Below are positions 633-58,771 of a stretch of 64,000 nucleotides of DNA, one piece after another. The DNA lies in the NCBI GenBank assembly GCA_003707115.1, contig PPNB01000006.1:1-64000 (forward strand), in the 5' to 3' direction. Under the pieces are notes generated by a model, which was not told the DNA's origin, did no database searches, and was given only the letters and a program-made list of their open reading frames with translations. The stretch comes from Tortispora ganteri (taxonomy: Eukaryota). Position 1 is the stretch's first letter; each line of letters starts with the position of its first letter. The position numbers and the translations under genes were made by a program.

Positions 633-885
633 TTTCCTTGAAAAATTAGCAGGATAAGATTCAAATTTTCGTGCAATTGACTGCAAGTTTCTAAAATTAA
701 TGGCAGAATGAAGAATGCAAGAGAAACCGTGAACACGGCATTTATATATAATAAACTAACCCTAACCCATAAATGTGGGGAAAATATTGGAAGATCATTA
801 TCATGTATATATGTTGCTCATCAATAATCTAAGTGGAGTTAAAGGGATTATTATAATATATGTATTCATACATAAAAGAATTTTG

Positions 886-2866: not shown

Positions 2867-4534
2867 ATGGATGGCTTTAATAACATATATGAACCTTTAT
2901 GGACATCAGCAAAGTGTCTTAGACATATAAGGAGACTCAATTCGCGGCTTTGTGCTCTCAAGGAGTTAAGAAAGCTTCAAGAGCCATCTACGCTGTATAA
3001 CAACAATGAACTGACTCTGGAAATAATCAAAAAAACTACAACTTCTACGTTAAGCAAACCTACGAAGTCACATTTTAACAGAATTATTCCTTTGATTTCA
3101 AATATATGGGACTCTAACATCTACTACAGCGTCATCAGTTTAATAGAAATTCTGGATCACCTATACTCTTCAGTAGCAGAATCGTGCCTTATTACAGATC
3201 GCTTAAAACTATCGCAGATGTGTGCCTTTAATATCGGTTTCCACACTGGTAGGGACGCAGATATGGAGACTATGGAGACTGTAATGACTGAATGGGATTC
3301 ATTGGATCACCAAAGAATGCTCGTAATGGCCGGGTACGCTTATGGCTCTCTTGATTCACATATCCACATTCTCCAAGATTTAGCCCCTCTTGTAATCAAT
3401 TTACTCTACGATATTGGTCACATTAAAGTATCTAGAGGGCTCTTTAAGTCGTATTTGGTAACAGTACCGGCCTCCATTATCAAGCAAAGCAGTTCTTTAG
3501 GATACCTGGCTAACAAATGCGGGGTGTCCCTCATTTCTCTCCTAGTCAAAATTGAATGCACAGAACTCGGCACAGAAATACGCGATCCGATACAGTTTAT
3601 TCCTAGGCCTTCAAATATCACGAATGAACAGATAGTGCATTTGACAGATTGGATAGAGTATCTTACCGCGAATCGAAGCCGTGAATCACTAAAACCGTTG
3701 ATCCCTGCTATGACTAATTCTATCGTCGCGTTAACGGTACATGACGTGTTCTTGTCTCCGATGACTTTATGTCAAATGTGTAAAAAGGGGCTCACATTCG
3801 TTTATGACTTCTACACAATCTATTGCACGGTCACGGGATCGAGTATCCGAGGAATATATACTGGTTCTGACATGAACTATTCGTATATTCGTAATAAAGC
3901 GCACTATTCAGAGGTCTTAAGAGCACTAGTGTTATACACAGTGAGCTCAGAAACAGCAGCGGCGTTTATTGAGGGGCTGATGACAAATAACCACGATATG
4001 ATTGCCGCCGATATGGTCATGCTGATGTCGCAGGTACACTATACCTCGGAGGAACAGGTAAGTTCCATGTCAAATCCCGAAACTACAGCGTTCGGACGAG
4101 CACTCCAGTCCGTCTCTGACAGCATTAAAAGTATATTGCAAGATGTTGGAAACAATTATACGGCTATGACCGCAATATTCGATCTACTAGATATCTCTGA
4201 AGGCAAAAAGTTCGCGTATACCAGTGGATTCGCCGGTGTATCCGATGATTACGAAGCGAAACAAACAAAGAAAAAGCTAATTGACAGTACTGAATTATGG
4301 CTTAATGCAGAACTTACAGCCTCATTCTATCAGGATATATTGGCCAGCGAAACTAAACAAGCTGCATTGATAGCCGAATCAGATAAGCCCACCAAATCAA
4401 AAAGCCAGAAACCAGCACAACTCAAACGAAAGGCATTGCTATGCGATAACTCTGTTACAAATCAAAATTGTGATAATGGCTTACAGTTCAGCGATTTGTC
4501 GATTCATCCGAGAAAGCTACTCAAGCAAGGCTGA
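2867..4534 (+). CDS. Uncharacterised 555-aa protein
   Basis: Long ATG-initiated ORF filling a gene-sized gap; helical/hydrophobic body and basic C-terminus; no family recognised. Confidence 0.75.
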   Translation: MDGFNNIYEPLWTSAKCLRHIRRLNSRLCALKELRKLQEPSTLYNNNELTLEIIKKTTTSTLSKPTKSHFNRIIPLISNIWDSNIYYSVISLIEILDHLYSSVAESCLITDRLKLSQMCAFNIGFHTGRDADMETMETVMTEWDSLDHQRMLVMAGYAYGSLDSHIHILQDLAPLVINLLYDIGHIKVSRGLFKSYLVTVPASIIKQSSSLGYLANKCGVSLISLLVKIECTELGTEIRDPIQFIPRPSNITNEQIVHLTDWIEYLTANRSRESLKPLIPAMTNSIVALTVHDVFLSPMTLCQMCKKGLTFVYDFYTIYCTVTGSSIRGIYTGSDMNYSYIRNKAHYSEVLRALVLYTVSSETAAAFIEGLMTNNHDMIAADMVMLMSQVHYTSEEQVSSMSNPETTAFGRALQSVSDSIKSILQDVGNNYTAMTAIFDLLDISEGKKFAYTSGFAGVSDDYEAKQTKKKLIDSTELWLNAELTASFYQDILASETKQAALIAESDKPTKSKSQKPAQLKRKALLCDNSVTNQNCDNGLQFSDLSIHPRKLLKQG

Positions 4535-9390: not shown

Positions 9391-11358
9391 TTAGACGTCG
9401 CGTCGACTGATATCACTGTCTCGGCTGTTTCTTCCAGAGAGAAGAGGGCTGGCTGGCCCGTCGCCAGCGTCATTAATGAGATCGCGCTGCAATTCTTCGT
9501 CACCCAAAATACTCTCTATACCTTCACGTTTAATAACCTCAGCTTCTAATTTGCGGCGTGTTACTTTGATATCTGAAACACCATACCATGTTATGCAGGC
9601 CATTCCTAGGAACGCTGCAACGCAAGAAAATACCATGGCTACATAACCCTTGGCAGTAAACCCTGCAGGCAACTCAGGCACGTCTTGTGGTTCACCAGTT
9701 AAATTGAAATAGTCAACAGTGTTACCTGCAGCATTTCCTTCAGTAGGATAGCCACCGGCCTTGCAGACGTCCAAGTGATTTTGAGTAATGTTTTGTGTTG
9801 CACGGATCTGCTCAGGTGCTTCCACAATAACCATAGAAAGTCCCTGGATAATGTGCCATTCAATATGACAATGAAAGAACCATACTCCAGGATTATTATT
9901 GTGCCATCTCATAACCATATAGCCGTTGGGCCTTACGAATGCAGTGTCACGTCTGACAGGATTAGGTCTTTGCTCACCTGGAGAGTCTGGATTGTATGTA
10001 ATGAATACGTTGTCATCATCAGAACCTTCAGATCGTTCCACAAGTTGGTACTGATGTCCGTGTAAATGGAAAGGATGTTTACCGGGATCCTGGTTGTTCA
10101 AAACAATCTGTGCAGTCTTATTGTATTCAAGCACAAACGAGTGGGTAGTCGATCCATAGATTCTGGAGTCGGTAATGACGTCTTCAGGAGCAGAGAAAAG
10201 CGTATACAAAATAGGAACAACAGGCTCAAGATAACTGATGTTGTTAAAAAAGGCGTAATTAGCTCCGTCGGCGCGGGTCTGCATGGTTACATTGACAGTG
10301 ATAGTCTGATCGACCTCGTCATCAGTAATGAGGTCCTGCACAACAAGTGGGGTGAGATAGAAGTCATCAGTCCAGTTCAAATCGTCAAATGATCCCTCCA
10401 AGAGTGCCGGCTCAGGGCGAATGCTGTTGTCCACAGCATCAGTCTCGTAAACAAACCATCCAGTAGTGTTCCAGTTGAGTGTATCGGGCAGAGTATCAAG
10501 CATGTCAAGATCGATTGAGGCAACAAACGGAAAGACAGCCTGGTTAAGCTGTACAAGTTCTTCCTCAGACTTAGTGGTTATCAAAACAGCGTAACGCTGG
10601 GCAACAGTGATGTAGATCATCTCGGACTCATACGGTTCAACATCCACACCATCTACTTCAATGATAGTCATGTTGTGACCCTCAAACCAAATGTATTGAG
10701 ACACAAAGGCTCCATAGTTGATAATGCGGAATTTATAGGTGGTATTAGGTTTGAGACTGTAGGTGACGTTCTGAGAGTCATTGATCAGACCTGAATCGGG
10801 AATAGGTTCAGCACCAGTGGGGTTAGCGACGGAGAGAAATTTCTCTGTAAGGTCGCTCATTAAGTCGTGGTACCACTCAGAGATAGTGAGAGTGAACGAT
10901 TCCTCATACATATCGGCATATGGGTCTTCAGGGTCGTTGATAATTAGAGCAGCACGAATACCGTTAGGGTATTGGCCTTCAGTATGTGAATGCCACCAGT
11001 AGGTACCAGACTGATCTGGGACAGTGAAGTTGTAGAGCATAGTTTCACCGGGAGCAATAGGACATTGAGTAAGACCAGGAGGACCGTCCATAGTATTGGA
11101 ACCTGTTTGGAACAGACCATGAAAATGGATAGAACTGGTTTCGTTACCGAGACCGTTGGTATAGTAGAGGACTATTCTGTCACCTTTTGTTACCTCAATA
11201 ACAGGTGGAGGCCAGACACCGTTAATACCAATAACAGGTCTATTATACATGCCATCGGGGTTGGCATAGACCCATTCACTAGTCCAGTGATATTCATGAG
11301 TCTCTGCGAGCGCGTAAACCGCAGAAAGAGCGGCGATCACAAGAGATTTAGCTAGCAT
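9391..11358 (-). CDS. FET3: Multicopper ferroxidase
   Basis: Signal peptide; Cu motifs HFHG, WWHSH, HPFHLHGH, HCHIEWH; GAEPIP iron-binding Glu; C-terminal TM; paired with FTR1. Confidence 0.95.
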   Translation of the reverse strand: MLAKSLVIAALSAVYALAETHEYHWTSEWVYANPDGMYNRPVIGINGVWPPPVIEVTKGDRIVLYYTNGLGNETSSIHFHGLFQTGSNTMDGPPGLTQCPIAPGETMLYNFTVPDQSGTYWWHSHTEGQYPNGIRAALIINDPEDPYADMYEESFTLTISEWYHDLMSDLTEKFLSVANPTGAEPIPDSGLINDSQNVTYSLKPNTTYKFRIINYGAFVSQYIWFEGHNMTIIEVDGVDVEPYESEMIYITVAQRYAVLITTKSEEELVQLNQAVFPFVASIDLDMLDTLPDTLNWNTTGWFVYETDAVDNSIRPEPALLEGSFDDLNWTDDFYLTPLVVQDLITDDEVDQTITVNVTMQTRADGANYAFFNNISYLEPVVPILYTLFSAPEDVITDSRIYGSTTHSFVLEYNKTAQIVLNNQDPGKHPFHLHGHQYQLVERSEGSDDDNVFITYNPDSPGEQRPNPVRRDTAFVRPNGYMVMRWHNNNPGVWFFHCHIEWHIIQGLSMVIVEAPEQIRATQNITQNHLDVCKAGGYPTEGNAAGNTVDYFNLTGEPQDVPELPAGFTAKGYVAMVFSCVAAFLGMACITWYGVSDIKVTRRKLEAEVIKREGIESILGDEELQRDLINDAGDGPASPLLSGRNSRDSDISRRDV

Positions 11359-13224: not shown

Positions 13225-14409
13225 ATGGTTGACGTGTTTGCACCAGCCGTCTTCTTCATCGTTTTTCGCGAAACCTTAGAGGCTTCAATCATTATTTCAG
13301 TTTTACTCGCCTTTCTCAAACAAAGTATCGCGTCAAATGATGACAATCCGAAGCTTTACAAGACGCTAGTAAAGCAAGTCTGGGTTGGCGGTTTTGCAGG
13401 CCTTGGTATCTGTCTCATCCTTGGAGGTGCTTTCATCGGTGTCTTTTATGGTCTCGGAAGCGATATATGGGGAAGCACTGAAGATATCTGGGAAGGTGTG
13501 TTCTCAATTATCGCCAGTATCATCATTTCCGTTATGGGTCTCGCTATGCTTCGCATGAACAAGATGAAAGCAAAATGGCGTGTTAAAATCGCTAAGGCTA
13601 TCCTTGCCAAAAATGAAACTAATGAGGCCGATATGAGTACAGTATGGAAACGTGTGAAATATAGAATCATTCCGGGTAAGCAGTTCACTTCACGCTATGC
13701 TTTCTTTATCTTGCCATTCGTGACAACTCTCAGAGAAGGTCTCGAAGCCGTGGTATTCATCGGTGGTGTTGGTCTCGCGCTCCCCGCAACTTCATTTCCT
13801 ATTCCTGTTATTACAGGATTCCTTGCCGGTGCAGCTGTCGGTTACTTAATCTATAAGGGTGGTAACTATATGTCAATTCAGATCTTCCTTATCGTTTCAA
13901 CCTGTTTCTTGTACCTCGTTGGCGGCGGTCTTTTCTCCAAGGCTGTGTGGTACTTCGAGAATTACGCATTCTCTCAGCTCACAGGTGGAGATGCATCCGA
14001 AAACGGTAACGGTCCGGGTTCATACGATATCAGGAAGAGTGTATGGCACGTCAACTGCTGCAACCCCGAGACATCCGGAGGATGGATGATTTTCAACGCC
14101 CTTTTCGGTTGGCAAAATTCTGCCACTGTCGGATCTGTTGTCTCATATTGCGCATACTGGATTGCCGTCATGATAGTAATCTTGATCTCTCTATATGCTG
14201 AGAAGAAGGGTGACCTGCCTTTCTTGCCCATGTTCTTGAGAAAGAAATGGTTCTTAAACGCGAAGGATGAGGATCTGGAGGCAGCAGAAATGATCATTCG
14301 TCAAAAGGCAATCAATGTCACGAATGTTAGTAGGAACAATGACGACATAGAACTAAGTGTCAGTGGAAGTTCCTCAAGTGAAGTCGCAAAGAATGACAGC
14401 ACAAATTAG
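13225..14409 (+). CDS. FTR1: High-affinity iron permease
   Basis: Two RExxE motifs (FRETLE, LREGLE), GDASE loop, WHVNCCNP, multi-TM layout. Confidence 0.96.
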   Translation: MVDVFAPAVFFIVFRETLEASIIISVLLAFLKQSIASNDDNPKLYKTLVKQVWVGGFAGLGICLILGGAFIGVFYGLGSDIWGSTEDIWEGVFSIIASIIISVMGLAMLRMNKMKAKWRVKIAKAILAKNETNEADMSTVWKRVKYRIIPGKQFTSRYAFFILPFVTTLREGLEAVVFIGGVGLALPATSFPIPVITGFLAGAAVGYLIYKGGNYMSIQIFLIVSTCFLYLVGGGLFSKAVWYFENYAFSQLTGGDASENGNGPGSYDIRKSVWHVNCCNPETSGGWMIFNALFGWQNSATVGSVVSYCAYWIAVMIVILISLYAEKKGDLPFLPMFLRKKWFLNAKDEDLEAAEMIIRQKAINVTNVSRNNDDIELSVSGSSSSEVAKNDSTN

Positions 14410-28260: not shown

Positions 28261-30357
28261 CTATTTCTCTTCTTCTTTTTTGTCGTCTTTCTCTTCTTCT
28301 TTTAAGACTTCTTTTTCGGCTTCTCCTTCGTCTTCGGTGTCCGTATCGATCACCTCCCAGTTATACGGAGCAAACTTATCTTCTCCGTCTTCTTCAGCAT
28401 CACTAGAGTCTGATTCATCATCTTTATCCTCTTCGTCACTGTCTGTCACTTCTTGCACTTTCGGAATCTCGTCAGGCTTTTCTATGCAGAGGTTCGTCGT
28501 CACAGCGGCATAGCTCACAGCACTTCGAGTATATGGATTCGTAACAACCTTTCTAAATTGAGAACCAGCGTATACACTGCTAGACTCCTCCTCTGTGTTG
28601 AAGGTTGTGACACGACGATGGATAATTCCAGAACCAAAGTGGCATGTAGGTACCAATTCAACATCAAACCTGAACTCGCCAAGTTTGTCTGGAACAGGAG
28701 CTGGAGTCATAGATTTAAAAGTGCTAACCTTAACACGAACAGGTTTAGTCGAGGATGGATCGACAGAACTGAAATCATTGCTTGCGTAGTGTGTGACTTG
28801 GTGCAAATCGTCAACTAACAGCCCTTCGCGCAAATTGAAAGAGACGCAATACCAAGAAGGATCATAAACCGTAGGCAAAAATGGAGTTCGTCCTAGATTT
28901 AATTTGGTTCCTTCCAAATTTGTTTTGGCAGGATCACGCAGTATTTCAGCATCCTCAATGTATTCAAGATCATTGACATCTATTTCTAGAGGAACATAAG
29001 CATGTGATGCTGGAGTAACGACAAATTTCACAACAATATGTGCAATTGAATTAGGTGTCACTTTTGTTTCACCTGGTACTTTGAAATAGGAGTCGATGAT
29101 GTTGAGAATTGGTATGTCAGCAGCATATTTCACAGCCTTCTTTGCTTTATCGTCGTCGTCAATGGCAAGATATGCCTTCTGCTTTTCAAGGGTCATTCCT
29201 GGCTTAAATAGATCAAGAATACTCCTCTTACTGGGAGCAGGGAGAGCAGGATCTGTTTCCGAGGATTTTTCCAGAGCCTCTGACGTGACGTAGGGAAGCT
29301 GAAGTAATTCACTATCGCCAGGATACACTGCCTGACTAAAATGACGCATGACATTGATCACTGCAATAGTAGATTTGTAATTACGGAAAGAAGAAACAAG
29401 GGTTAGTAGCGCTTTCAAAATTATGGGAATGCGAGCAGCAATAGTAAGCATATTAAGATGTTCAATTTCATCTAGCTCGACGCGGTTCAAATAAGCATCA
29501 ATAAGAGCTCGAACGTATTCGGGAGACGAAGTAGGAAGCAGTATTTTAAACTCTTCAGCTTCCGAAATCATATCTAAGACGTCCTCTTCAGTGATTACGT
29601 CAAAATGTCTGTTAGCGATTCTCCTGATCAGCTTATCTGCAGTAGTCATGTGAATGCCTGATTGAGTATAGCTCTTAGATTTTGACCACCAGCTGCTTAC
29701 CATTGATGGGAGAAGTAAACCAACAATAAGAATGTAGAGGAACACGACGTACGGTGAGCCGGTCTCTATGAGAAAAGCGGGCAATGCAATGCCGTGTTTA
29801 GTTTCCTGCATGCCTTCCGGGTGGCCATATAGACGGAGGTTTTCTTTTACGGCTTCGTCTGTAAGGGCCTTATATGCTTGAGTTAATTCCAAGAATCTGG
29901 CTTCATCGGCTTCGCGTTCTTCTTCCGGGAGCCGGCCGAGTTTATCGGGGTGGTAGCGCAGGGAAAGTTGGCGGTATGCAGTTCGCACTTGACTGTCTGA
30001 AGCAGAAGAGGACAGGCCTAGCATTTCATAGGGGTCATAAACAGACACTGTAGCATATGGAGAAGACCAGATAGTAGAAAAGATCGCAATGAACAAAATC
30101 CAACCTGTGACTAAGATTGATATAGTTACAGGCGACCAACGTGATTTTGTCTCAATTTCGCGTTTTGTCGACTTGACCAATTCTTCCTTCGGAGGTGAAA
30201 ATAAACCATCAAGTTCAGATGGGATAAAGTTTCTTCGCTTTTTTAGCGTTTTGTACAATGAGAGAGAACTGGGGATAAGTATAGCGCCTAGCACGGTCAA
30301 GGCGAAGTAGGGCCACGTTTCACCCTGCTCATCGTAACTGTAGCTACGATCGCTCAT
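28261..30357 (-). CDS. SEC63: Translocon J-domain subunit
   Basis: YSYDEQGETWPYF N-terminus, 3 TMs, J-domain HPD, YGHPEG..GIALP, acidic tail with IDTDTE. Confidence 0.95.
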   Translation of the reverse strand: MSDRSYSYDEQGETWPYFALTVLGAILIPSSLSLYKTLKKRRNFIPSELDGLFSPPKEELVKSTKREIETKSRWSPVTISILVTGWILFIAIFSTIWSSPYATVSVYDPYEMLGLSSSASDSQVRTAYRQLSLRYHPDKLGRLPEEEREADEARFLELTQAYKALTDEAVKENLRLYGHPEGMQETKHGIALPAFLIETGSPYVVFLYILIVGLLLPSMVSSWWSKSKSYTQSGIHMTTADKLIRRIANRHFDVITEEDVLDMISEAEEFKILLPTSSPEYVRALIDAYLNRVELDEIEHLNMLTIAARIPIILKALLTLVSSFRNYKSTIAVINVMRHFSQAVYPGDSELLQLPYVTSEALEKSSETDPALPAPSKRSILDLFKPGMTLEKQKAYLAIDDDDKAKKAVKYAADIPILNIIDSYFKVPGETKVTPNSIAHIVVKFVVTPASHAYVPLEIDVNDLEYIEDAEILRDPAKTNLEGTKLNLGRTPFLPTVYDPSWYCVSFNLREGLLVDDLHQVTHYASNDFSSVDPSSTKPVRVKVSTFKSMTPAPVPDKLGEFRFDVELVPTCHFGSGIIHRRVTTFNTEEESSSVYAGSQFRKVVTNPYTRSAVSYAAVTTNLCIEKPDEIPKVQEVTDSDEEDKDDESDSSDAEEDGEDKFAPYNWEVIDTDTEDEGEAEKEVLKEEEKDDKKEEEK

Positions 30358-30640
30358 TTTACACTTTTATAACCGCAAACGTGACAAAAACTGTATCAAA
30401 AAGAATGCTCAATAAGATATTAGCGCGCCAGCTGGCTTTGTCGGTAGGTGTATGCAAAGTGTTCGAAGTGTATGTGTGAGACACGCAGAGAACACACCCT
30501 CTAAATTGTTGTGGTCAAATATCAAAAATCTTGTACTTTTCAATGAGGGTTAGGGTATCATAATTGACTATATACTCAGTTATTTTCGAATCAGGACTAC
30601 TTTATTTTCTTTTTGTTGGCAGTGCCACCTGGGTTCAAGT

Positions 30641-31405
30641 ATGTCTGTATGGAGTAATATTGCTGTTTACAGTCCATTATTGCTGATTGCATTTGCTTAT
30701 CTGCGCTGGACACGGCCTGGAGCTGCTGACGGGGTTGCTGAGGCCGATCACGATAGCGAGATCGACGAGCGTTTAGCAGAGGCACACGACAATGTGCCTG
30801 CCGACAACGATACTAGAGATGTCAATGACGTACCTGCTCATGCGAGAGCCAATGACCTTGAAGCTGAAATAGATAATGTGGCAAACGATGATATTGAAAC
30901 GGTGGGTCCATCTATTGTTCGCACAAAGAAGATCGGAAAAAAGAAAGCCAAATCGATCGCTCGTAAGGATCAAGTGAAGCAATACAACGAATATATGCGA
31001 ACAATGAGTATTATGGAGCGTGAACGGCAAGAGGCAGACGAAGAGCAGTTTCGCGAAGTACGCGAGTATGCAACGCAGCGGCGCCGTGAGATTGAGGAAG
31101 ATCTAGAGAAGCGACGGAATCAGGCTAGACAAAGGGCTAAGGAAATAGAAGAAGCGGCTAGAGCAGCCTATGAGGGAGCTTTAAAGCGATTACGGAACAT
31201 CAGGCCTGGTGAACGGGTAAAGGTCGACACTGAGGCACTAGAAAAAGCTGCGTATGCCTTAACGGATGGATCGTCATTTCTCACTAGCCATAAGTACTTT
31301 ATAAGGCTAACAGAGGACCAAATTTATAAAATACGATCACGCATATCCGAAAAAGGGTACATGAGCAACGAGGATATATTAAGCGAGGTGAACTCGCTTT
31401 TTTAG
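30641..31405 (+). CDS. Membrane-anchored coiled-coil protein, DDRGK1/UFBP1-like
   Basis: N-terminal TM, acidic linker, KKIGKKKAKSIARKD, long E/R helix, C-terminal FIRLTEDQI..I...I.EKGYMS..DI..EVNSLF resembling the DDRGK winged-helix end. Confidence 0.6.
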   Translation: MSVWSNIAVYSPLLLIAFAYLRWTRPGAADGVAEADHDSEIDERLAEAHDNVPADNDTRDVNDVPAHARANDLEAEIDNVANDDIETVGPSIVRTKKIGKKKAKSIARKDQVKQYNEYMRTMSIMERERQEADEEQFREVREYATQRRREIEEDLEKRRNQARQRAKEIEEAARAAYEGALKRLRNIRPGERVKVDTEALEKAAYALTDGSSFLTSHKYFIRLTEDQIYKIRSRISEKGYMSNEDILSEVNSLF

Positions 31406-31559: not shown

Positions 31560-32213
31560 TTAACGGTTAGACTTGGCAACACGCTCAAGTTCGTCTTTCT
31601 TCTTGATAGCATAAGAGTTGGGAGAACCCTTGGCGGCATTAATGAGTTCCTCAGCAAGACATTCGGAGATGGTCTTAACGTTACGGAAAGAGGCCTCACG
31701 GGCTCCAATAGTAAGGAGAGAAATGGCCTGGTTAACACGACGGAGAGGAGAGACATCAACGGCCTGTCGTCGAACAGTTCCAGCAGAACCAATACGAGTA
31801 CTGTCTTCACGGGGACCACAGTTGGCAATAGCATCAACGACGACTTGGATGGGGTTTTGGTCAGTGAGAAGGTAGATAATCTCCATAGCGTGCTTGACGA
31901 TGCGAACAGCTTTGAGTTTCTTACCGTTGTTGCGTCCGTTCATCATCAAGGCATTGGTAAGACGTTCAACAATAGGACATTGAGCCTTACGGAATCGCTT
32001 GACTGCGTAACGGCCGGCGCTGTGCGGGAGATAAACAGGCTGTCTGATTTGGATATAGTCGGTCAATGAGATATCCTTAACTTCAACACCATCAAATGTC
32101 CATTTATTAAAAAGTTTTACGCTATCAGCCTCAGCAACAACATCCTCAGGAAGAGGGGTAGCTAAAACATAAGGAGCAGCCTCAGTGTATTGTGCTTCTT
32201 CAACTTCAGCCAT
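31560..32213 (-). CDS. RPS5: 40S ribosomal protein S5 (uS7), intronless
   Basis: [37 protein letters not shown]. Confidence 0.98.
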
Positions 32214-38626: not shown

Positions 38627-39395
38627 TGATGTAGATGAGTAGGATAGCACACGGGAGCCTAGTCAAGATATCACGAGTTCAGGGAGTAGCAGGATTGGTG
38701 CGCAATACGCGGTCGTAGTGTTTGATAGTAGTTAGGAAAAGCAACTGTAAAGGTCCAAAAAAAATAACGCGTCTGCGAATGTATTAGATCACTCAGTGAG
38801 AGTAGAAGAGTAGAAAGATGTGTGTACCTTGGAAAAAAGGTGCTTGTTTCAGAGAGAGTAGTGTGCACGCGTGTAAGTTTTGGGAAATTTAGAGATAAAG
38901 TTTTTGCGTGGTGCAGGAATTTAAGAACATTAAGTAACCGGTACCAGGGGTAGAACGCGTTGAGTGCTAACTTTAGTTGCACTTTTGAGAGTTGAAAACC
39001 AAAAGCAGCTGTATAGAAAATGTGTACGGGTGCTGTGGTCGCCAAATAAACATGGATTACTCGATTGCGACTGACATGCAGTCGACTACGATACAAGAAT
39101 ATAAGGTTTAAGGAACAAACCTTATGCATGAAATGACGGGTTGTGGGAGGTGTAGTACAAACGCTCATTCGGTATTAGGTATTTTAACTAACTCGCGACA
39201 TTTCTTTTCTCTTTTTGTGTCTCTTTTTATGTCTCTTTTTTTCTTTTTCTTTTTTGTTTGTTAGTTTTGGTGAAGATGACTATGGTTTTTGATAAACGCG
39301 TTTTGGCCTTCTGGTGGTCGCATCTGTTGGTCTAAGCTACGTATAGAGTGGTAGTCATGCGATGATAATGGCTATGCGGACGGCTATAAAGGGCA

Positions 39396-40271: not shown

Positions 40272-40625
40272 ATGGCTGCCTATACGCTCATTCACAACCC
40301 GAAATGCAGTACTTCGCGAACAGTACTCGCCATACTCAAGGAGAACGGCCATGAAGTTAATGTCATAGAGTACCTCAAAGATCCTCCAACTGAGACTACA
40401 TACCGCGACTGGATAACGCATCTCGGCGGGTCCCCTCGAGATATAATCCGCTCAAAGGAACCTTTGTACAAATCTCTGAACCTGGACGATGAAAATACTA
40501 CTGACGACCAATTGATCAATGCATTAGTTGCTAATCCGATCCTGTTCAATCGACCACTCGTTATATCACCCTCCGGCGTAGTAAAAGTATGTCGTCCCGC
40601 TGACACAGTACGCAATCTGCTATGA
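40272..40625 (+). CDS. arsC: Glutaredoxin-dependent arsenate reductase, bacterial ArsC family
   Basis: HNPKCSTSR with C12, plus R16, R60, R94 (NRP) and R108 (CRP) matching E. coli R773 ArsC catalytic residues; YLKDPP; 117 aa, intronless. Confidence 0.92.
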   Translation: MAAYTLIHNPKCSTSRTVLAILKENGHEVNVIEYLKDPPTETTYRDWITHLGGSPRDIIRSKEPLYKSLNLDDENTTDDQLINALVANPILFNRPLVISPSGVVKVCRPADTVRNLL

Positions 40626-40820
40626 CCGCCTACTCTACGCCTCAATTTTCTTATCCAATTATACAGTATATTGACCAATTTGGTTCTATATATTGCACCC
40701 TCAATTTCGTAGCTTCTTTCTGTTATTGTTGCTGTTGTTGTCTTGCGCGGCCCCTCTTGCCACCACCCTTTTCCTCGGTTCAAACTTACCTGCCACCACC
40801 ACCAATCACCAATCACCAGC

Positions 40821-42428
40821 ATGGACCAATCTAGCCGCAACCGCATACAGCTGCTACTCAAGAACCTTGCAGAGGGCTCATCTGCACCGAATAAATTGTT
40901 AAGTGATTTTGCACATGTTCTTCCCACCGTCAAGAACGCCGAAAACGTCGCCTTGCTGTCGTCTACTCTCGCTACTTCACCAATATGGCATACATCGCCG
41001 ATCCAATCGGCATACACCTCCCTTATAACCATTGCCGCGCTACAGATGTCGCTTGAAAGAAAACGCAAAATTACTGAGCCAACAATTACTTTAACTGTAT
41101 TCATATCGTCCATCCTCAATGCATGTCTCGCCGCCGCTCCGACAGCGCCTTCTACAGGCAGCATCATTGCAGGCTTACTCGCCGGCTCTGCCTCATCCTC
41201 ACTACACCCTTACCAGACTGAAGTCCCATCACGAATTCAGTATAAACTGCTCAAATCGTACTGCTCTGTCGCATCTTCCGCTCTATTGTCCCCGGTGCTA
41301 GTTTTTGCTCACGCCCGCGTTTGCACGCTCAACCCTGATGCACCCGGCCACGGCATTCCAACTAAATTGTCGCAGCGGATGCTCCCGTCCATGCTCAATA
41401 CGCTTCTTTTTAGCTCTATGGGCGTGCTGGCTGATAAGTCAGCAGTACCCAAAGCTGTCACTGACCAGACACCTTCGCTCACAGTGGCCACTGCCTCGTG
41501 CATTGTGGACTTGGGCGCAGTCGAGCAGACCGTCCTGGCTCTCACTCAGTTTTTGAACACACAGAGCAATAGAAATCAGTCAGAAACCAAGACTCTTGTT
41601 TATTCAATCCTCACTCTACTTGAGTATGCTGCCAAGCAGCTGCTCACGTTTCCGCGGCGACCTCAGAAACTACCACTCATGATTCTCGATACCCTGCGAA
41701 ATAGCTCAGATTTGCTCATAGAAAGAGGCATAGTCTCTGTGGGTAACTTGCCTGCATATGATTTTGCATTTTTGACAGCATTGAAACTGCTGGACAGTAA
41801 CTCAATTGCTACGCTGCTACACAGTATCCTCTCTACTTCAATAGAACGAACGCCCCAGACGTTGTTTGATCTTAACTGCGCTGAACAGGTTGTGTCGAAT
41901 AATCTTACCAACAAAATGCTTGTACAGATCTTTGAGCACTGTAAGCAATACGCGCGAGACTTGCCTATTACCGATACCAATAGGTACTGGGCAGAAGCGG
42001 CACACTCAGTCATACTCGCATTGCTAATGCAGATGTCTGTCTTAAGTCCGTCAGAGGTGTTTTCAGCAACTCTGTACGACTATTTGACCATGTTGTTCGA
42101 CTGTTTCCCAAAAAATGGGCTTTCTGACCACCAGTATTCGCTGGCATGCGGCATGGTCATGCAAGCTGCGGGGTCGCACGATGTCGTGAAAGGTGGCGCA
42201 CTGGCTGTAGATATGTACAATCGCATGTATGCGAGATTGGATAGTGTACCGGAAACTCGAAACGCATTTGAGAAAATTTTACAGTACGCTCCACCAAACG
42301 TTGTCGTTGGTGGCTTACAGCGACTCTACGCGCGACCCGAACAGGCCATGCCGATCATTCAGGGGTTCGACCTCGAACGGAAGGAAAAAGCATTGAACTG
42401 GGCATTCTCACGGCGAATGAACTTGTAA
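40821..42428 (+). CDS. PEX8: Peroxin 8
   Basis: NAENVALLSSTLATSPIW, TLFDLN..E, EAAHSVIL, Y..MLFDCFP..LS.HQ blocks resemble fungal Pex8; ATG at 40821; ends RRMNL. Confidence 0.72.
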   Translation: MDQSSRNRIQLLLKNLAEGSSAPNKLLSDFAHVLPTVKNAENVALLSSTLATSPIWHTSPIQSAYTSLITIAALQMSLERKRKITEPTITLTVFISSILNACLAAAPTAPSTGSIIAGLLAGSASSSLHPYQTEVPSRIQYKLLKSYCSVASSALLSPVLVFAHARVCTLNPDAPGHGIPTKLSQRMLPSMLNTLLFSSMGVLADKSAVPKAVTDQTPSLTVATASCIVDLGAVEQTVLALTQFLNTQSNRNQSETKTLVYSILTLLEYAAKQLLTFPRRPQKLPLMILDTLRNSSDLLIERGIVSVGNLPAYDFAFLTALKLLDSNSIATLLHSILSTSIERTPQTLFDLNCAEQVVSNNLTNKMLVQIFEHCKQYARDLPITDTNRYWAEAAHSVILALLMQMSVLSPSEVFSATLYDYLTMLFDCFPKNGLSDHQYSLACGMVMQAAGSHDVVKGGALAVDMYNRMYARLDSVPETRNAFEKILQYAPPNVVVGGLQRLYARPEQAMPIIQGFDLERKEKALNWAFSRRMNL

Positions 42429-55741: not shown

Positions 55742-58700
55742 ATGGAGAATCAACCAGGAGACATTGATGAGTCTCTATACTCGCGTCAGTTGTATGTGCT
55801 CGGGAAGGAGGCAATGCAGCAGATGAAATCTTCGAATGTACTGATTATAGGCCTTGGAGGGTTAGGTGTAGAAATCGCAAAGAACGTCGCTTTGGCAGGC
55901 GTCAAGAGCTTGACTCTTTACGACCCTACACCTGCTACCATGATCGACCTGTCGGCACAGTACTATTTGACTTTGACAGATATCGGTAAGCCCAGAGCCG
56001 AGGCATGCGTCTCCAAGGTTGCCGAATTGAATGAATACGTCCCTGTATCGGTTCTGGACACACTCGATCAGTCCACTGTCTCCGCTTTCAAGGTAGTTGT
56101 TTGCACTAACCAATCCCTTGAACTCCAATTAAAAGTCAATGAATGGACCCGCGCTTCAGGAGCCGCGTTCATCAGCTCGTCCGTGAGAGGCTTGTTTGGT
56201 ATGCACTTCAATGATTTCGGAAAGCAGTTTACTGTGCTCGACCCTACCGGTGAGGAACCCATATCCGGGATTCTCTCAGATATCTCGTCTGATGGTGTCG
56301 TCACTGCCCACGATGAAACACGCCATGGCCTTGAAGATGGCGACTATGTTCGTTTTACTGAAGTTCTAGGAATGCCCGGCTTGAACGAAGCTGATCCGCT
56401 GCCCGTCAAGGTACTTGGACCGTACACTTTCTCAGTAGGTGATGTATCTAAATACGGTACATACGAAAGAGGTGGAGTATTCCATCAAGTTAAACAGCCC
56501 AAAGTTTTGGAATTCAAACCTCTTGTCGAATCAATCAATGATCCTGACTACCTTGTAACCGATTTTGCTAAGTTTGACCGTCCTGCACAACTTCATATCG
56601 GGTTCATCGCTTTGGATAAGTTCATTCAGCAGAACTCGGCTCTACCTCGTCCTAGAAATAAAGAGGATGCTGAGAAATTACTAGATATTGCCAAAAATGT
56701 CGTGACTGAATATCCATCTATAATTTCTGATGCCATTATCGATGAGAAACTCATCTCTGAGTTAGCTTTAGAGGCTCGTGGAAATTTGGCCCCTATGACT
56801 GCTATGCTTGGTGGCTTTGCTGCCCAAGAAGTCCTAAAGGCTTGCACTGGAAAGTTTTCGCCTGCCAAACAGTGGATGTATTTTGATTCCTTGGAATCAT
56901 TGCCGCCTAATCTATCCGAAGATGACTGCAAGGAAGTAGGTTCCAGATATGATGGCAACATAGTTGTTTTGGGCAAGAAAATTCAGGATCAAATTTCAAA
57001 CCTGAACGCGTTCCTTGTTGGTTCAGGTGCAATTGGTTGTGAAATGTTAAAGATCTGGGCTTTACTCGGTGTCGGTACTGGACCTGACGGCAAAATTATA
57101 GTCACAGACATGGATTCTATCGAGCGTAGTAACCTGAACAGACAGTTTTTATTCCGCGCTCCTGATGTTGGAAAATTGAAAAGCGAAGCTGCTGCTAAAG
57201 CTGTCACTAATATCAATCCTGATCTTGGTGGTAAAATTGTCGCCATGCAAGAAAAAGTCGGAGCTGATACAGAAACCATCTTTAATGATGATTTCTGGCA
57301 GCCTATTCATATAGTTGCCAATGCTCTGGATAATGTTGATGCTCGCACATACGTGGATCGACGATGTGTGTTTTTCCGTAAACCACTCCTAGAAAGCGGT
57401 ACGCTGGGCACTAAGGGTAATGTTCAGGTGGTCATCCCTGATCTTACCGAAAGTTACTCCTCATCTCGCGATCCCCCAGAAAAATCAATTCCTCTTTGCA
57501 CATTGAAGAGTTTCCCCAATCAAATCGAGCACACCATTGCCTGGGCCAAAAGCATGTTTGAAGAATACTTCACTAGTCAGGAGGAGATGGTTAACATGTA
57601 TTTATCCAACCCCAATTTTATTGAAAACACTCTGAGCACTACTTCTGATCAGATTGGTACTTTGACTACACTCTACAACTACCTTGTCGCTGCCAAAGCC
57701 ACAACATTTGAAGATTGTATTGCGTGGGCACGCTTAGAGTTTGAGACTAAGTTTCATAACGACATTGTTCAACTCTTGTACAACTTTCCAAAAGATTCAG
57801 TTACCTCAGCTGGTATCCCATTTTGGTCAGGTCCTAAGAGAGCACCTACACCCCTGACGTTTGATATCAACAATCCTACTCATTTTGGTTTTGTTCAAGC
57901 GGCTGCTAATTTGCGTGCTTACAATTTTGGTATTCCTGTGGACAATAATCCTGAAACATATCAGAAAGTGATCGATAGCTTGATTATACCCGACTTTGTT
58001 CCGAAGTCTGGAATTGTTATTAAAGAGAAAGACACTGACCCTGATCCCGCAGGTACTACAGTAACCAGTGATACTGACCAAATTCAGGAACTTATCTCAA
58101 AGATTCCGCCTGCTTCAGAATTTGGTAGTTTTAGACTGAACCCGGTGGAATTTGAGAAGGATGACGACAGTAACTTCCATATTGATTTTATCACTGCGGC
58201 GTCCAATCTTCGTGCCAGTAATTACAACATTGAACCCGCTGATCGATCGAAAACAAAATTTATTGCCGGAAAGATTATTCCAGCCATTGCCACCACAACT
58301 GCGTTGGTTACCGGTTTAGTTAACTTGGAATTACTGAAGCTTGTTGAAGGCAAGGAAAAAGATATTGAGGCGTTCAAAAACGGATTTATTAATCTGGCCT
58401 TGCCCTTTTTTGGATTCTCTGAACCAATTGCTTCCGGCAAAATCAAATATAATGATAAGCAGATTGATCAAATCTGGGGACGTTTTGACATTTACAATGA
58501 TTTGACTTTGCAAGAGTTTATCGATCACTTCGAGAAAGAGGAAGGGCTTAGTATTACTATGGTTTCTTACAATGTGAGTTTGTTGTATGCCAGTTTCTTC
58601 CCGCCAAAGAAGCTAAAAGAAAAATACGGCATGAAGATGACCGAGTTGGTCTCTACTGTATCTAAGAAGGAGATACCTGCCGGAACTAAGACTTTGTTGT

Positions 58701-58771
58701 TTGAGATCTGTGCTGATGACAAAGAAGGAAATGATGTGGAAATTTTGCCTTTCATTTGCTTGCATTTGTAA
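55742..58771 (+). CDS. UBA1: Ubiquitin-activating enzyme E1
   Basis: [32 protein letters not shown], active-site [20 protein letters not shown] at 55742. Confidence 0.97.

Follow-up and report, generated by a model that had tools for sequence, protein, structure and literature searches.

The closest described systems are built around human and animal DDRGK1 (UFBP1; structures 8ohd, 8oj0, 8qfc, 8c0d and 8b9x), a subunit of the UFM1 ribosome E3 ligase. In PMC10937380, the N-terminal helix of DDRGK1 contacts 28S H24 and H47 near eL31, where SEC61, SRP and SR bind, and PMC12047416 describes SEC61 density at the tunnel exit as being replaced by this helix; stable placement of the human helix there is reported to follow UFM1 conjugation and to require the UFM1-interacting motif (UFIM). 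At the C-terminal end, DDRGK1 pWH' and UFL1 pWH together form a composite winged helix, with a role in UFL1 binding for I283 and residues 268-298 of DDRGK1 (PMC9627666), and Arg265 in the DDRGK loop is described as contacting UFC1 and CDK5RAP3 in the human protein. That DDRGK1 and UFL1 can persist where UFM1 is absent, in fungi as well, has been published before: according to Picchianti 2023 (PMC10183829), UFM1 was lost in fungi and DDRGK1 and UFL1 were kept in some of them, and the same paper raises the release of ER-bound 60S subunits from the translocon in fungi as an open question. The fungi counted there as keeping DDRGK1 or UFL1 may include the ascomycete family described below; none of the fungal names that we looked for occurs in its supplementary spreadsheet. 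The literature found on DDRGK in Ascomycota holds only a statement of pathway loss in fungi.

For Tortispora ganteri, we analyzed a stretch of 64,000 nucleotides, referred to as the window, in which one open reading frame (Table 1) has a product that is 79-80% identical to the T. caseinolytica hypothetical protein CANCADRAFT_30516 and very probably homologous to DDRGK1, as judged from the profile comparisons given below. Its divergent neighbor has an acidic tail, a length and an architecture that are all consistent with SEC63, and matches the Pfam Sec63 Brl domain just below the cut-off (5e-5, 23.1 bits versus 25). An earlier reading made from the sequence alone had placed the two start codons 283 bp apart across a spacer containing AGGGTTAGGGT, and had suggested that the gene is co-expressed with the translocon. 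Both the distance and the sequence element were found as described, whereas the pairing with SEC63 is absent from relatives: SEC63 adjoins the family gene at 0 of 38 related metagenome loci, a set retrieved using a 12-sequence family alignment, with 3 kb or more of sequence upstream of the match in 17 of them and several near-duplicates among them. We therefore discarded the idea that co-regulation with SEC63 is conserved, and what speaks for co-expression is the adjacency in this one window. On the other side, the RPS5/uS7 gene lies tail-to-tail with the open reading frame, with 154 bp separating the stop codons, and RPS5 likewise adjoins the family gene in 10 of the 38 loci. A telomere-like motif, GGGTTAGGG, was also counted across the window at one mismatch or fewer; its 9 sites (5.6 expected; at least 9 in 10 of 100 shuffles) represent no enrichment, and it was rejected as a significant signal.

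Table 1. Coordinates of the features discussed, as positions in the window; residue numbers are those of the 254-aa product
Feature	Position	Strand	Basis or remark
SEC63-like gene	28261-30357	-	698 aa; Pfam DnaJ 9e-15, 55 bits
Divergent spacer, SEC63-like to DDRGK1-like start codons	30358-30640		283 bp
AGGGTTAGGGT in divergent spacer	30546-30556		sequence
DDRGK1/UFBP1-like open reading frame	30641-31405	+	254 aa plus stop; open reading frame list
N-terminal hydrophobic anchor, residues 3-24	30647-30712	+	predicted single membrane span
Acidic, disordered linker, residues 27-93	30719-30919	+	poorly conserved
Basic motif RTKKIGKKKAKSIARKDQVKQYNE, residues 94-117	30920-30991	+	opens long helix
Long E/R-rich helix, residues 100-185	30938-31195	+	AlphaFold2, pLDDT 92-98
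Shortened winged-helix domain, residues 176-222	31166-31306	+	probable counterpart of DDRGK1 WH1'
Two C-terminal helices, residues 223-254	31307-31402	+	probable counterpart of pWH'
RPS5/uS7 gene	31560-32213	-	Pfam Ribosomal_S7 4e-43

The homology becomes visible mainly through profile comparison. When aligned with eight Pfam-positive DDRGK proteins using hhalign, the family profile matched at 99.3% with an E-value of 2.1e-20 over 174 columns, versus 0.0022 for the reversed control, so that the profile check proposed by the sequence-only reading came out clearly in favor of DDRGK1. The basic motif by itself gave 97.7% and 1.7e-12 (reversed control 0.013) and the C-terminal domain by itself 5e-8 to 2e-7 (reversed control 0.04-0.14), both with seven of the nine DDRGK sequences, as two lacked the scripted motif pattern. 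Reversed-profile controls leave the similarity standing, both over the full length and in two regions taken separately, which puts it beyond chance. Against all PDB sequences, the top match of the family profile was human DDRGK1 (8c0d_B, E 0.003; 8b9x_A, 0.007), in the C-terminal domain and outside the charged helix. The Pfam DDRGK family, PF09756, falls short of its gathering score (10.9 bits versus 27.8; E 0.36) with a partial match of residues 220-253 to profile positions 153-186 of 188, and is slightly outscored by two unrelated DUF families on the E/R helix. None of the 24 members of the family alignment reaches the PF09756 cut-off, yet 11 match it at E<=1, more than for any other Pfam family (the next has two). 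Searching the whole library with phmmer yielded 42 matches at E<=1e-3; among the 41 scanned by Pfam, four were above the DDRGK gathering score (P0028, P0032, P0040, P0041) and two were sub-threshold, with the single-sequence matches to Pfam-positive DDRGK proteins lying mostly in the charged helix (residues 12-199, 91-188, 70-170 and 10-176). By ESM Atlas features, every top cluster for the T. caseinolytica ortholog was DDRGK (score 0.86, 177 of 256 shared).

The sequence-only reading had listed a membrane anchor, a basic motif with a metazoan counterpart, a long E/R helix, a replaced DDRGK motif and a C-terminus resembling that of human DDRGK1, and each of these was recovered upon inspection. 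Only residues 3-21 form a hydrophobic segment (Kyte-Doolittle 19-residue mean 1.61; next best 0.3), which AlphaFold2 models as a helix spanning 4-24, with Arg22 and Arg25 on the C-terminal side of the predicted span. It is conserved across the family, including 24 of 26 residues shared with the T. caseinolytica protein (92%), and the single N-terminal membrane anchor expected of DDRGK1/UFBP1 is thus predicted here. A subgroup of the family (P0002-P0004, P0006, P0008, P0010, P0011, P0014, P0016 and P0018) carries an extra N-terminal motif. The linker that follows has 20 acidic residues (D+E) versus 3 basic ones (K+R) and pLDDT below 50 at 27-65 and 82-92, and shares 36 of its 67 residues with T. 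caseinolytica (54%). By comparison, the motif plus helix is 93% identical to that species. KKIGKKKAKSIARKD occupies residues 96-110 of the product, and the motif as a whole (94-117, of which 96-117 aligned) corresponds to human 116-136, where the part of the human helix resolved on the 60S begins; the metazoan counterpart named in the sequence-only reading is genuine and lies at human residues 116-128. G99, K101, K102 and E117 are invariant, and S105 and Y115 nearly so, among the 24 family members. From there the modeled helix runs for 86 residues, with 17 K+R and 17 D+E in residues 126-185. On alignment and model, the helix opened by this motif would be the counterpart of the DDRGK1 ribosome-docking sequence and exit-binding helix.

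Toward the C-terminus, the window protein is missing the elements with which human DDRGK1 serves UFM1 chemistry. Where the human protein has the UFIM between helix and WH1' (residues 196-205), the AlphaFold2 helix continues unbroken to residue 185 and the alignment has a gap, as in all 14 other aligned ascomycete-type sequences; Drosophila (P0047) and human both have the segment. Past the long helix, the model contains a strand-helix-strand-strand arrangement in which WH1' has about 20 alignment columns fewer than in the Pezizomycotina, Mucorales and Drosophila proteins, one helix region being deleted. LTSHKY (214-219) takes the position of the DDRGK loop, leaving T215-S-H-K-Y219 with a His at the Arg265 position, and with the loop replaced, Arg265 and Lys267 have no counterpart. 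By contrast with this shortened and altered WH1', the two C-terminal helices (225-238 and 243-253) align with the human C-terminus as the sequence-only reading described: I235 corresponds to human I283 and G239, invariant among the 24 family members, to human G287. Judging from alignment and model, they probably form a partial winged helix equivalent to pWH' with its UFL1-contact isoleucine. The C-terminal domain is 83% identical to that of T. caseinolytica, and the protein's last 87 residues scored 0.00 as a homodimer in a test run without controls.

We favor, with somewhat better than even confidence, the reading that this gene specifies a diverged DDRGK1/UFBP1 ortholog of ascomycetes, anchored at the ER and acting at the 60S subunit independently of UFM1. 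The kept helix and UFL1-binding end, together with the lost UFM1 elements, fit a function at the tunnel exit of the 60S subunit that does not depend on UFM1; such a role at the 60S subunit or the translocon, taken by itself, is a tentative proposal to which we give slightly less than even weight. In this mechanism, the N-terminal span would hold the protein in the ER membrane with its bulk in the cytosol, and the basic motif and long helix would be the equivalent of the human exit-binding helix. On the strength of that correspondence, we propose that the protein competes with the translocon and may help to detach 60S subunits or to hold them at the ER. The C-terminal partial winged helix would recruit a partner that completes the fold, either a UFL1-like protein or something else. 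As the parts that read and write UFM1 are deleted, the protein would work without UFM1; since tunnel-exit placement of the human helix needs the UFIM, it may not dock in the same way. The homology, the domain anatomy, the elements kept or lost and the distribution of the family come directly from the analysis, whereas ER location, ribosome association, independence from UFM1 and a partner for the half-domain are what we infer from that homology. The sequence-only reading had anticipated a retained adaptor acting at ER-bound ribosomes without UFM1, of which the true kinship with DDRGK1, the missing UFM1 elements and the preserved helix and UFL1-binding end stand, and with which the suggested action is compatible.

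The alternative that survives best is that a divergent UFL1, and perhaps also UFM1, UBA5 and UFC1, persist, and that the protein is the membrane adaptor of a ligase that still works at least in part. The best-conserved C-terminal part is the UFL1-binding partial winged helix, I283 and G287 equivalents included, and half-domains of this kind usually require the complementary half (PMC9627666); however, the same protein has lost the UFM1-interacting motif and has a different sequence in place of the DDRGK loop that carries Arg265. UFL1 and DDRGK1 are co-retained in some fungi (Picchianti et al.), although papers report that fungi lack UFM1, and it is on these reports of fungal UFM1 loss that the absence of UFM1, UBA5, UFC1, UFL1 and CDK5RAP3 from the genome rests. 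UFM-pathway families were not found in the window, where the scan covered 37 of the 38 open reading frames of 120 aa or more, or in 62 scanned neighboring open reading frames of related loci, each of them a very small sample; given that a DDRGK1 relative is invisible to Pfam, a UFL1 relative could be as well. We consider a working ligase possible but doubtful.

Structural comparison bears on a second alternative. In Foldseek, the four best PDB matches of the whole model and the two best of the C-terminal model were DDRGK1 chains, although no structural match of either model reached E<=0.001. With VIA, residues 98-254 of the model aligned to 8ohd_C 117-302 (Z 5.5), a chain resolved from residue 117, which aligned to model residue 98, and residues 169-254 to 8c0d_B 205-302 (Z 4.8, rmsd 3.5, 83 residues). 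A structure search independent of Foldseek placed generic winged helices at Z 5.1, 4.9 and 4.6 versus 4.6 for 8c0d_E at rank 4, and residues 176-225 align to generic winged-helix chains with rmsd 1.8-2.9 and Z 4-5. Because generic winged-helix proteins tie with DDRGK1, structure alone is not decisive. The protein might be a DDRGK1-derived ER membrane protein with a nonribosomal role, acting for example as an adaptor in ER-phagy or tethering, or binding nucleic acid through its winged helix, and its basic helix would then bind membranes or RNA generally. Many DNA- and RNA-binding winged helices match the winged-helix part as well as DDRGK1 does (Z 4-5), and the loss of the UFIM, part of WH1' and the DDRGK loop marks the protein as remodeled; yet conservation across ascomycetes, Mucorales and animals is strongest in the basic motif that opens the ribosome-docking helix, and the order of parts and the helix length are kept, and we think this role improbable. 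An unrelated membrane-anchored charged coiled coil matching through its E/R/K-rich composition would account for the marginal Pfam match and for single-sequence DDRGK matches lying mostly within the charged helix, but is largely refuted by composition-keeping reversed controls (E 0.002-0.14, where the forward comparisons give 2e-20 over the full length, 2e-12 with the motif by itself and 5e-8 with the C-terminal domain minus the helix) and by the placement of the PDB profile match in the C-terminal domain rather than the helix, and appears extremely improbable.

The window protein belongs to an unannotated ascomycete family whose named members come from Tortispora, Blastobotrys, Sugiyamaella and four Dothideomycetes. 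A wider interpretation, speculative and in our estimate rather unlikely, is that a natural separation-of-function DDRGK1 persists in ascomycetes, early-branching budding yeasts among them, as a membrane-anchored exit-binding helix plus a half-domain for docking a partner, with every UFM1-specific element removed. An ancestral activity in competing with Sec61 for the tunnel exit and in recycling ER-bound 60S subunits would then predate UFM1 and be independent of it, and UFM1 would be a later regulatory layer. On that interpretation, the family would have escaped notice since Pfam misses it and no member from Saccharomyces, Candida or Schizosaccharomyces occurs among the named matches. Researchers in UFMylation regard fungi as lacking the system, and a conserved ascomycete relative would let one ask directly what DDRGK1 does in the absence of UFM1, in culturable hosts of the family (Blastobotrys, Sugiyamaella and Dothideomycetes). 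A family missed by current domain libraries is added here, and if the genome should hold UFM1 or UFL1, the finding would be a plain gain in annotation.

Among known systems, CCDC47, an ER membrane protein docking on the ribosome near the tunnel exit, is similar by analogy only: its docking mode is described as resembling that of the DDRGK1 helix (PMC10937380). Within fungi, the Pezizomycotina branch (for example Paraphoma P0055, Bimuria P0052, Lophium P0058 and Trichodelitschia P0068, and loci L001-L038) shares the basic motif (NR.VGAKKAKSLARKDQRRAY) and the C-terminal helices and likewise has no Pfam call, but its proteins, at about 330-460 aa, exceed the window protein in length; their WH1' is of full length, and their N-terminal region is both longer and more hydrophobic. 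Its C-terminal domain matches the DDRGK set weakly (probability 5-43%, E 2.5e-4 to 7e-3), and the branch is linked to DDRGK1 through the yeast branch, with C-terminal profiles matching at E 1e-8 to 3e-8, and through the basic motif. The early-diverging fungal DDRGK proteins of Calcarisporiella, Phascolomyces, Lichtheimia and Fennellomyces (P0041, P0043-P0045) are close to the window protein in size (255-289 aa), have a very similar basic motif and C-terminal helices and also lack a literal DDRGK sequence; unlike it, they score above the Pfam gathering cut-off (36-86 bits), and their WH1' is of full length. Compared with human DDRGK1, the window protein, from an organism whose group is reported to lack UFM1, has a gap in place of the UFIM, a WH1' some 20 residues shorter and a replaced DDRGK loop, and stays below the Pfam cut-off. 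It resembles human DDRGK1 in the basic motif and in the C-terminal 35 residues, where NSL at the end and the counterparts of I283 and G287 recur, and shares with the human and animal proteins, in the same order, an anchor, an acidic linker, a basic motif with a long helix, a winged helix and a partial winged helix.

The 254-aa protein encoded between the SEC63-like gene and RPS5 is a divergent ortholog of DDRGK1, a homology for which sequence profiles give good support and with which structure is compatible. Against Pfam, the window protein matched DDRGK at E 0.36 (10.9 bits against a cut-off of 27.8) over its last 34 residues only, and two unrelated DUFs scored slightly higher on its charged helix. 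When phmmer was run exhaustively over 1.84 billion representatives, 42 matches came back at E<=1e-3; when 41 of these were scanned against Pfam, 4 were above the DDRGK gathering score and 2 were sub-threshold, with no DDRGK match at E<=0.01 in the other 35. A family alignment was built from 24 of the closer matches, none of which reached the Pfam DDRGK cut-off; DDRGK was nonetheless the commonest Pfam family among them (11 of 24 at E<=1, any other in at most 2 of 24). Searched against all PDB sequences, the family profile gave human DDRGK1 (8c0d_B) as its top match (E 0.003), which covered the last 60 residues. Profile-profile comparison of the family against a set of eight Pfam-positive DDRGK proteins (one from Calcarisporiella, three from Mucorales, one from Drosophila and three unnamed) yielded a probability of 99.3% and E 2.1e-20 over 174 columns, versus E 0.0022 for the reversed target profile with its composition preserved, bearing out the sequence-only reading of this ORF as a DDRGK1 relative.

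Because the long helix is compositionally biased, the comparison was rerun on the two flanking regions alone, using 7 of 9 DDRGK sequences (the other two had no match to the motif pattern). The basic motif by itself matched the DDRGK set with a probability of 97.7% and E 1.7e-12 (reversed control, 0.013). For the C-terminal domain, the yeast-type branch gave 93.5-94.8% and E 5e-8 to 2e-7 (reversed, 0.04-0.14), whereas the longer proteins of the Pezizomycotina branch were far weaker, at 5-43% and E 2.5e-4 to 7e-3 (reversed, 0.02-0.05); the two branches matched each other in this domain at E 1e-8 to 3e-8. For the Tortispora caseinolytica ortholog, ESM Atlas features led to DDRGK clusters with a score of 0.86, which the tool rates as a lead only.

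Comparison of predicted structures agrees with DDRGK1 homology, if weakly. In Foldseek, DDRGK1 chains filled the top four rows for the whole model and the top two for the C-terminal model, none of the matches reaching E<=0.001. VIA aligned model residues 98-254 with 8ohd_C 117-302 (Z 5.5) and 169-254 with 8c0d_B 205-302 (Z 4.8, rmsd 3.5, 83 residues). A Foldseek-independent search placed generic winged helices level with DDRGK1 (Z 4.6-5.1); DDRGK1 itself ranked fourth, with an alignment that took in the bulk of the domain (residues 10-87 of the 87 in the model).

The window protein has a sole hydrophobic segment at residues 3-21 (Kyte-Doolittle 1.61; runner-up 0.3), modeled by AlphaFold2 as a helix at 4-24. 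Residues 27-93 are acidic (20 D+E versus 3 K+R), poorly conserved and modeled with low confidence, and are followed by a strongly basic stretch at 94-125 (11 K+R versus 2 D+E) that opens a continuous predicted helix at 100-185 (pLDDT 92-98). The remainder, residues 186-254, is modeled as a strand, a helix, two strands and two helices. The closest relative is a hypothetical protein of 255 aa from T. caseinolytica (Saccharomycotina, Trigonopsidales) with 79-80% identity along its whole length, and a search of 5.8 billion proteins found no other close one. Judged by this one protein, a Tortispora-like yeast is the probable source of the window. Identity between the two is 92% in the anchor, 93% in the basic motif and helix, 83% in the C-terminal domain and 54% in the linker, the pattern expected for a functional protein with a spacer.

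Elements of human DDRGK1 were mapped by aligning the Drosophila protein to the human chain for numbering and then to the fungal proteins (see table). The N-terminal helix of human DDRGK1 is described as a ribosome-docking sequence that touches 28S helices 24 and 47 near eL31, in a region also bound by SEC61, SRP and the SRP receptor (PMC10937380), and the cycle ends with a state in which this exit-binding helix of DDRGK1 stands at the tunnel exit in place of SEC61 density (PMC12047416). In 8ohd, chain C is first resolved at residue 117, whose VIA partner is model residue 98. The human UFM1-interacting motif (UFIM) binds UFM1 and is required in vitro for SEC61 release, and the DDRGK loop makes contact with UFC1 or CDK5RAP3 through Arg265, according to PMC10937380. 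At the C terminus, PMC9627666 reports that the partial winged helix (pWH') forms with that of UFL1 a composite domain centred on I283, and that a two-hybrid screen mapped the UFL1-interacting region to residues 268-298. The terminal NSL is common to human DDRGK1 and the window protein, and the first winged helix (WH1') of the yeast-type branch falls about 20 columns short of the full length seen in Pezizomycotina, Mucorales and Drosophila. By its demonstrated homology and anatomy, the window protein retains the membrane anchor along with the counterparts of the helix that docks on the ribosome and of the half-domain that binds a partner, and the elements specific to UFM1 are gone.

Features of the window (nucleotide positions) and elements of the window protein (residues) with their human DDRGK1 counterparts
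Feature	Position	Strand	Human residues	Detail
GGGTTAGGG	760-768	-		intergenic
ORF	2867-4531	+		no Pfam family at E<=1e-3
Multicopper oxidase	9391-11358	-		divergent from FTR1
FTR1 iron permease	13225-14409	+		divergent from oxidase
SEC63-like gene	28261-30357	-		upstream of DDRGK1-like ORF; DnaJ 55 bits; Sec63 Brl 23.1 bits, slightly below cut-off
AGGGTTAGGGT	30546-30556			SEC63/DDRGK1-like spacer
GGGTTAGGG	30547-30555	+		intergenic
DDRGK1-like ORF	30641-31405	+		254 aa
RPS5/uS7	31560-32213	-		downstream of DDRGK1-like ORF, tail-to-tail, 154 bp distant
ORF	38674-39168	-		no Pfam family at E<=1e-3
ORF	40295-41167	-		no Pfam family, scan at E<=1e-5 only
ORF	40821-42425	+		no Pfam family at E<=1e-3
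Ubiquitin E1	55742-58768			the E1 of the window; ubiquitin type
Basic motif	residues 96-117		116-136	
UFIM	gap		196-205	gap also in all 14 other ascomycete-type sequences aligned
DDRGK loop	T215-Y219		263-267	His at Arg265 position
pWH' contact residues	I235, G239		I283, G287	G239 invariant in family

A profile search that returns names found 27 proteins at E<=1e-3, none with a precomputed Pfam domain. Seven carried organism names, from the budding yeasts T. caseinolytica, Blastobotrys adeninivorans and Sugiyamaella lignohabitans and the Dothideomycetes Bimuria, Paraphoma, Lophium and Trichodelitschia (lineages checked for Tortispora, Blastobotrys, Paraphoma and Trichodelitschia), and all seven are annotated as hypothetical or uncharacterised. 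Saccharomyces, Candida and Schizosaccharomyces were not among these seven, a weak indication given that most matches are unnamed and the searches non-exhaustive for names. A scan of JGI metagenome contigs added 38 loci, all coding near-full-length Pezizomycotina-type members. Within the family, a subgroup of 289-412 aa (P0002-P0004, P0006, P0008, P0010, P0011, P0014 and P0016) has an additional conserved N-terminal segment between anchor and basic motif, with a consensus like F.D..TGEY.V.E....PR.I...E...LTG; P0018, which has that segment in part only, joins it via a shortened WH1', common to the three subgroup members aligned (P0003, P0008 and P0018) and the yeast type.

With 38 ORFs of 120 aa or more and a G+C content of about 43%, the 64-kb window has the look of a compact segment from a budding-yeast chromosome. 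Its multicopper oxidase and FTR1 permease are a classic FET3/FTR1-type high-affinity iron uptake pair. Four sizeable ORFs are without a Pfam family; two of them overlap on opposite strands, and therefore at most one of these is likely to be a gene. All sequence features previously read for the DDRGK1-like ORF were found, and its head-to-head arrangement with SEC63, with 283 bp between start codons, is real. As for conservation of that pairing in relatives, there was no sign: tblastn with the window SEC63 detected it in 0 of 38 related loci, several of them near-duplicates and 17 extending 3 kb or more upstream of the match. RPS5 adjoins the family gene in 10 of the 38 (L002, L007, L021, L022, L026, L028, L033, L034, L035 and L038), those closest to Dothideomycete proteins, and in most of the ten it is convergent, as in the window, 0.8-1.0 kb past the match. 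Since this adjacency recurs in Dothideomycete-like fungi as well as in a budding yeast, it may reflect ancient synteny, for which we claim no functional link; neighbours in other lineages are RPE65-like, DENND11, NOC3 or HMG-box genes. The telomere-repeat-like GGGTTAGGG has two exact copies in the window, one inside the SEC63/DDRGK1-like spacer, and is not enriched in the window when one mismatch is allowed (9 versus 5.6 expected); it might be a Tbf1-type promoter element.

Most likely, we infer, the window protein would be anchored in the ER and compete with the translocon for docking at the tunnel-exit site of the 60S subunit, acting without UFM1, its C-terminal half-domain presumably completed by a partner. 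Stable seating of the human helix comes after UFM1 conjugation and depends on the UFIM, and therefore the window protein would require another stabiliser. A Pfam scan of 37 of the 38 window ORFs, a small sample of the genome, contained no UFM-pathway family. Likewise, no UFM-pathway, DnaJ or Sec63 domain occurred in the similarly small sample of 62 neighbour ORFs scanned, drawn from 137 of at least 170 aa at 17 related loci by leaving out ORFs overlapping the family gene, antisense ORFs inside longer ones, RPS5 ORFs and L027 (duplicate of L019).

Fungi are described as lacking UFM1 in PMC4092871, PMC10183829 and PMC8057497; PMC10183829 also describes pathway components kept in certain fungi, and UFL1 and DDRGK1 as often co-retained once UFM1 is lost. 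The kind of protein is already known, as is the idea that DDRGK1 and UFL1 can survive the loss of UFM1, in fungi as well. Within the searches made, what appears new is an ascomycete family invisible to Pfam that extends into budding yeasts, its specific set of kept and deleted elements, and the further shortening of the yeast form.
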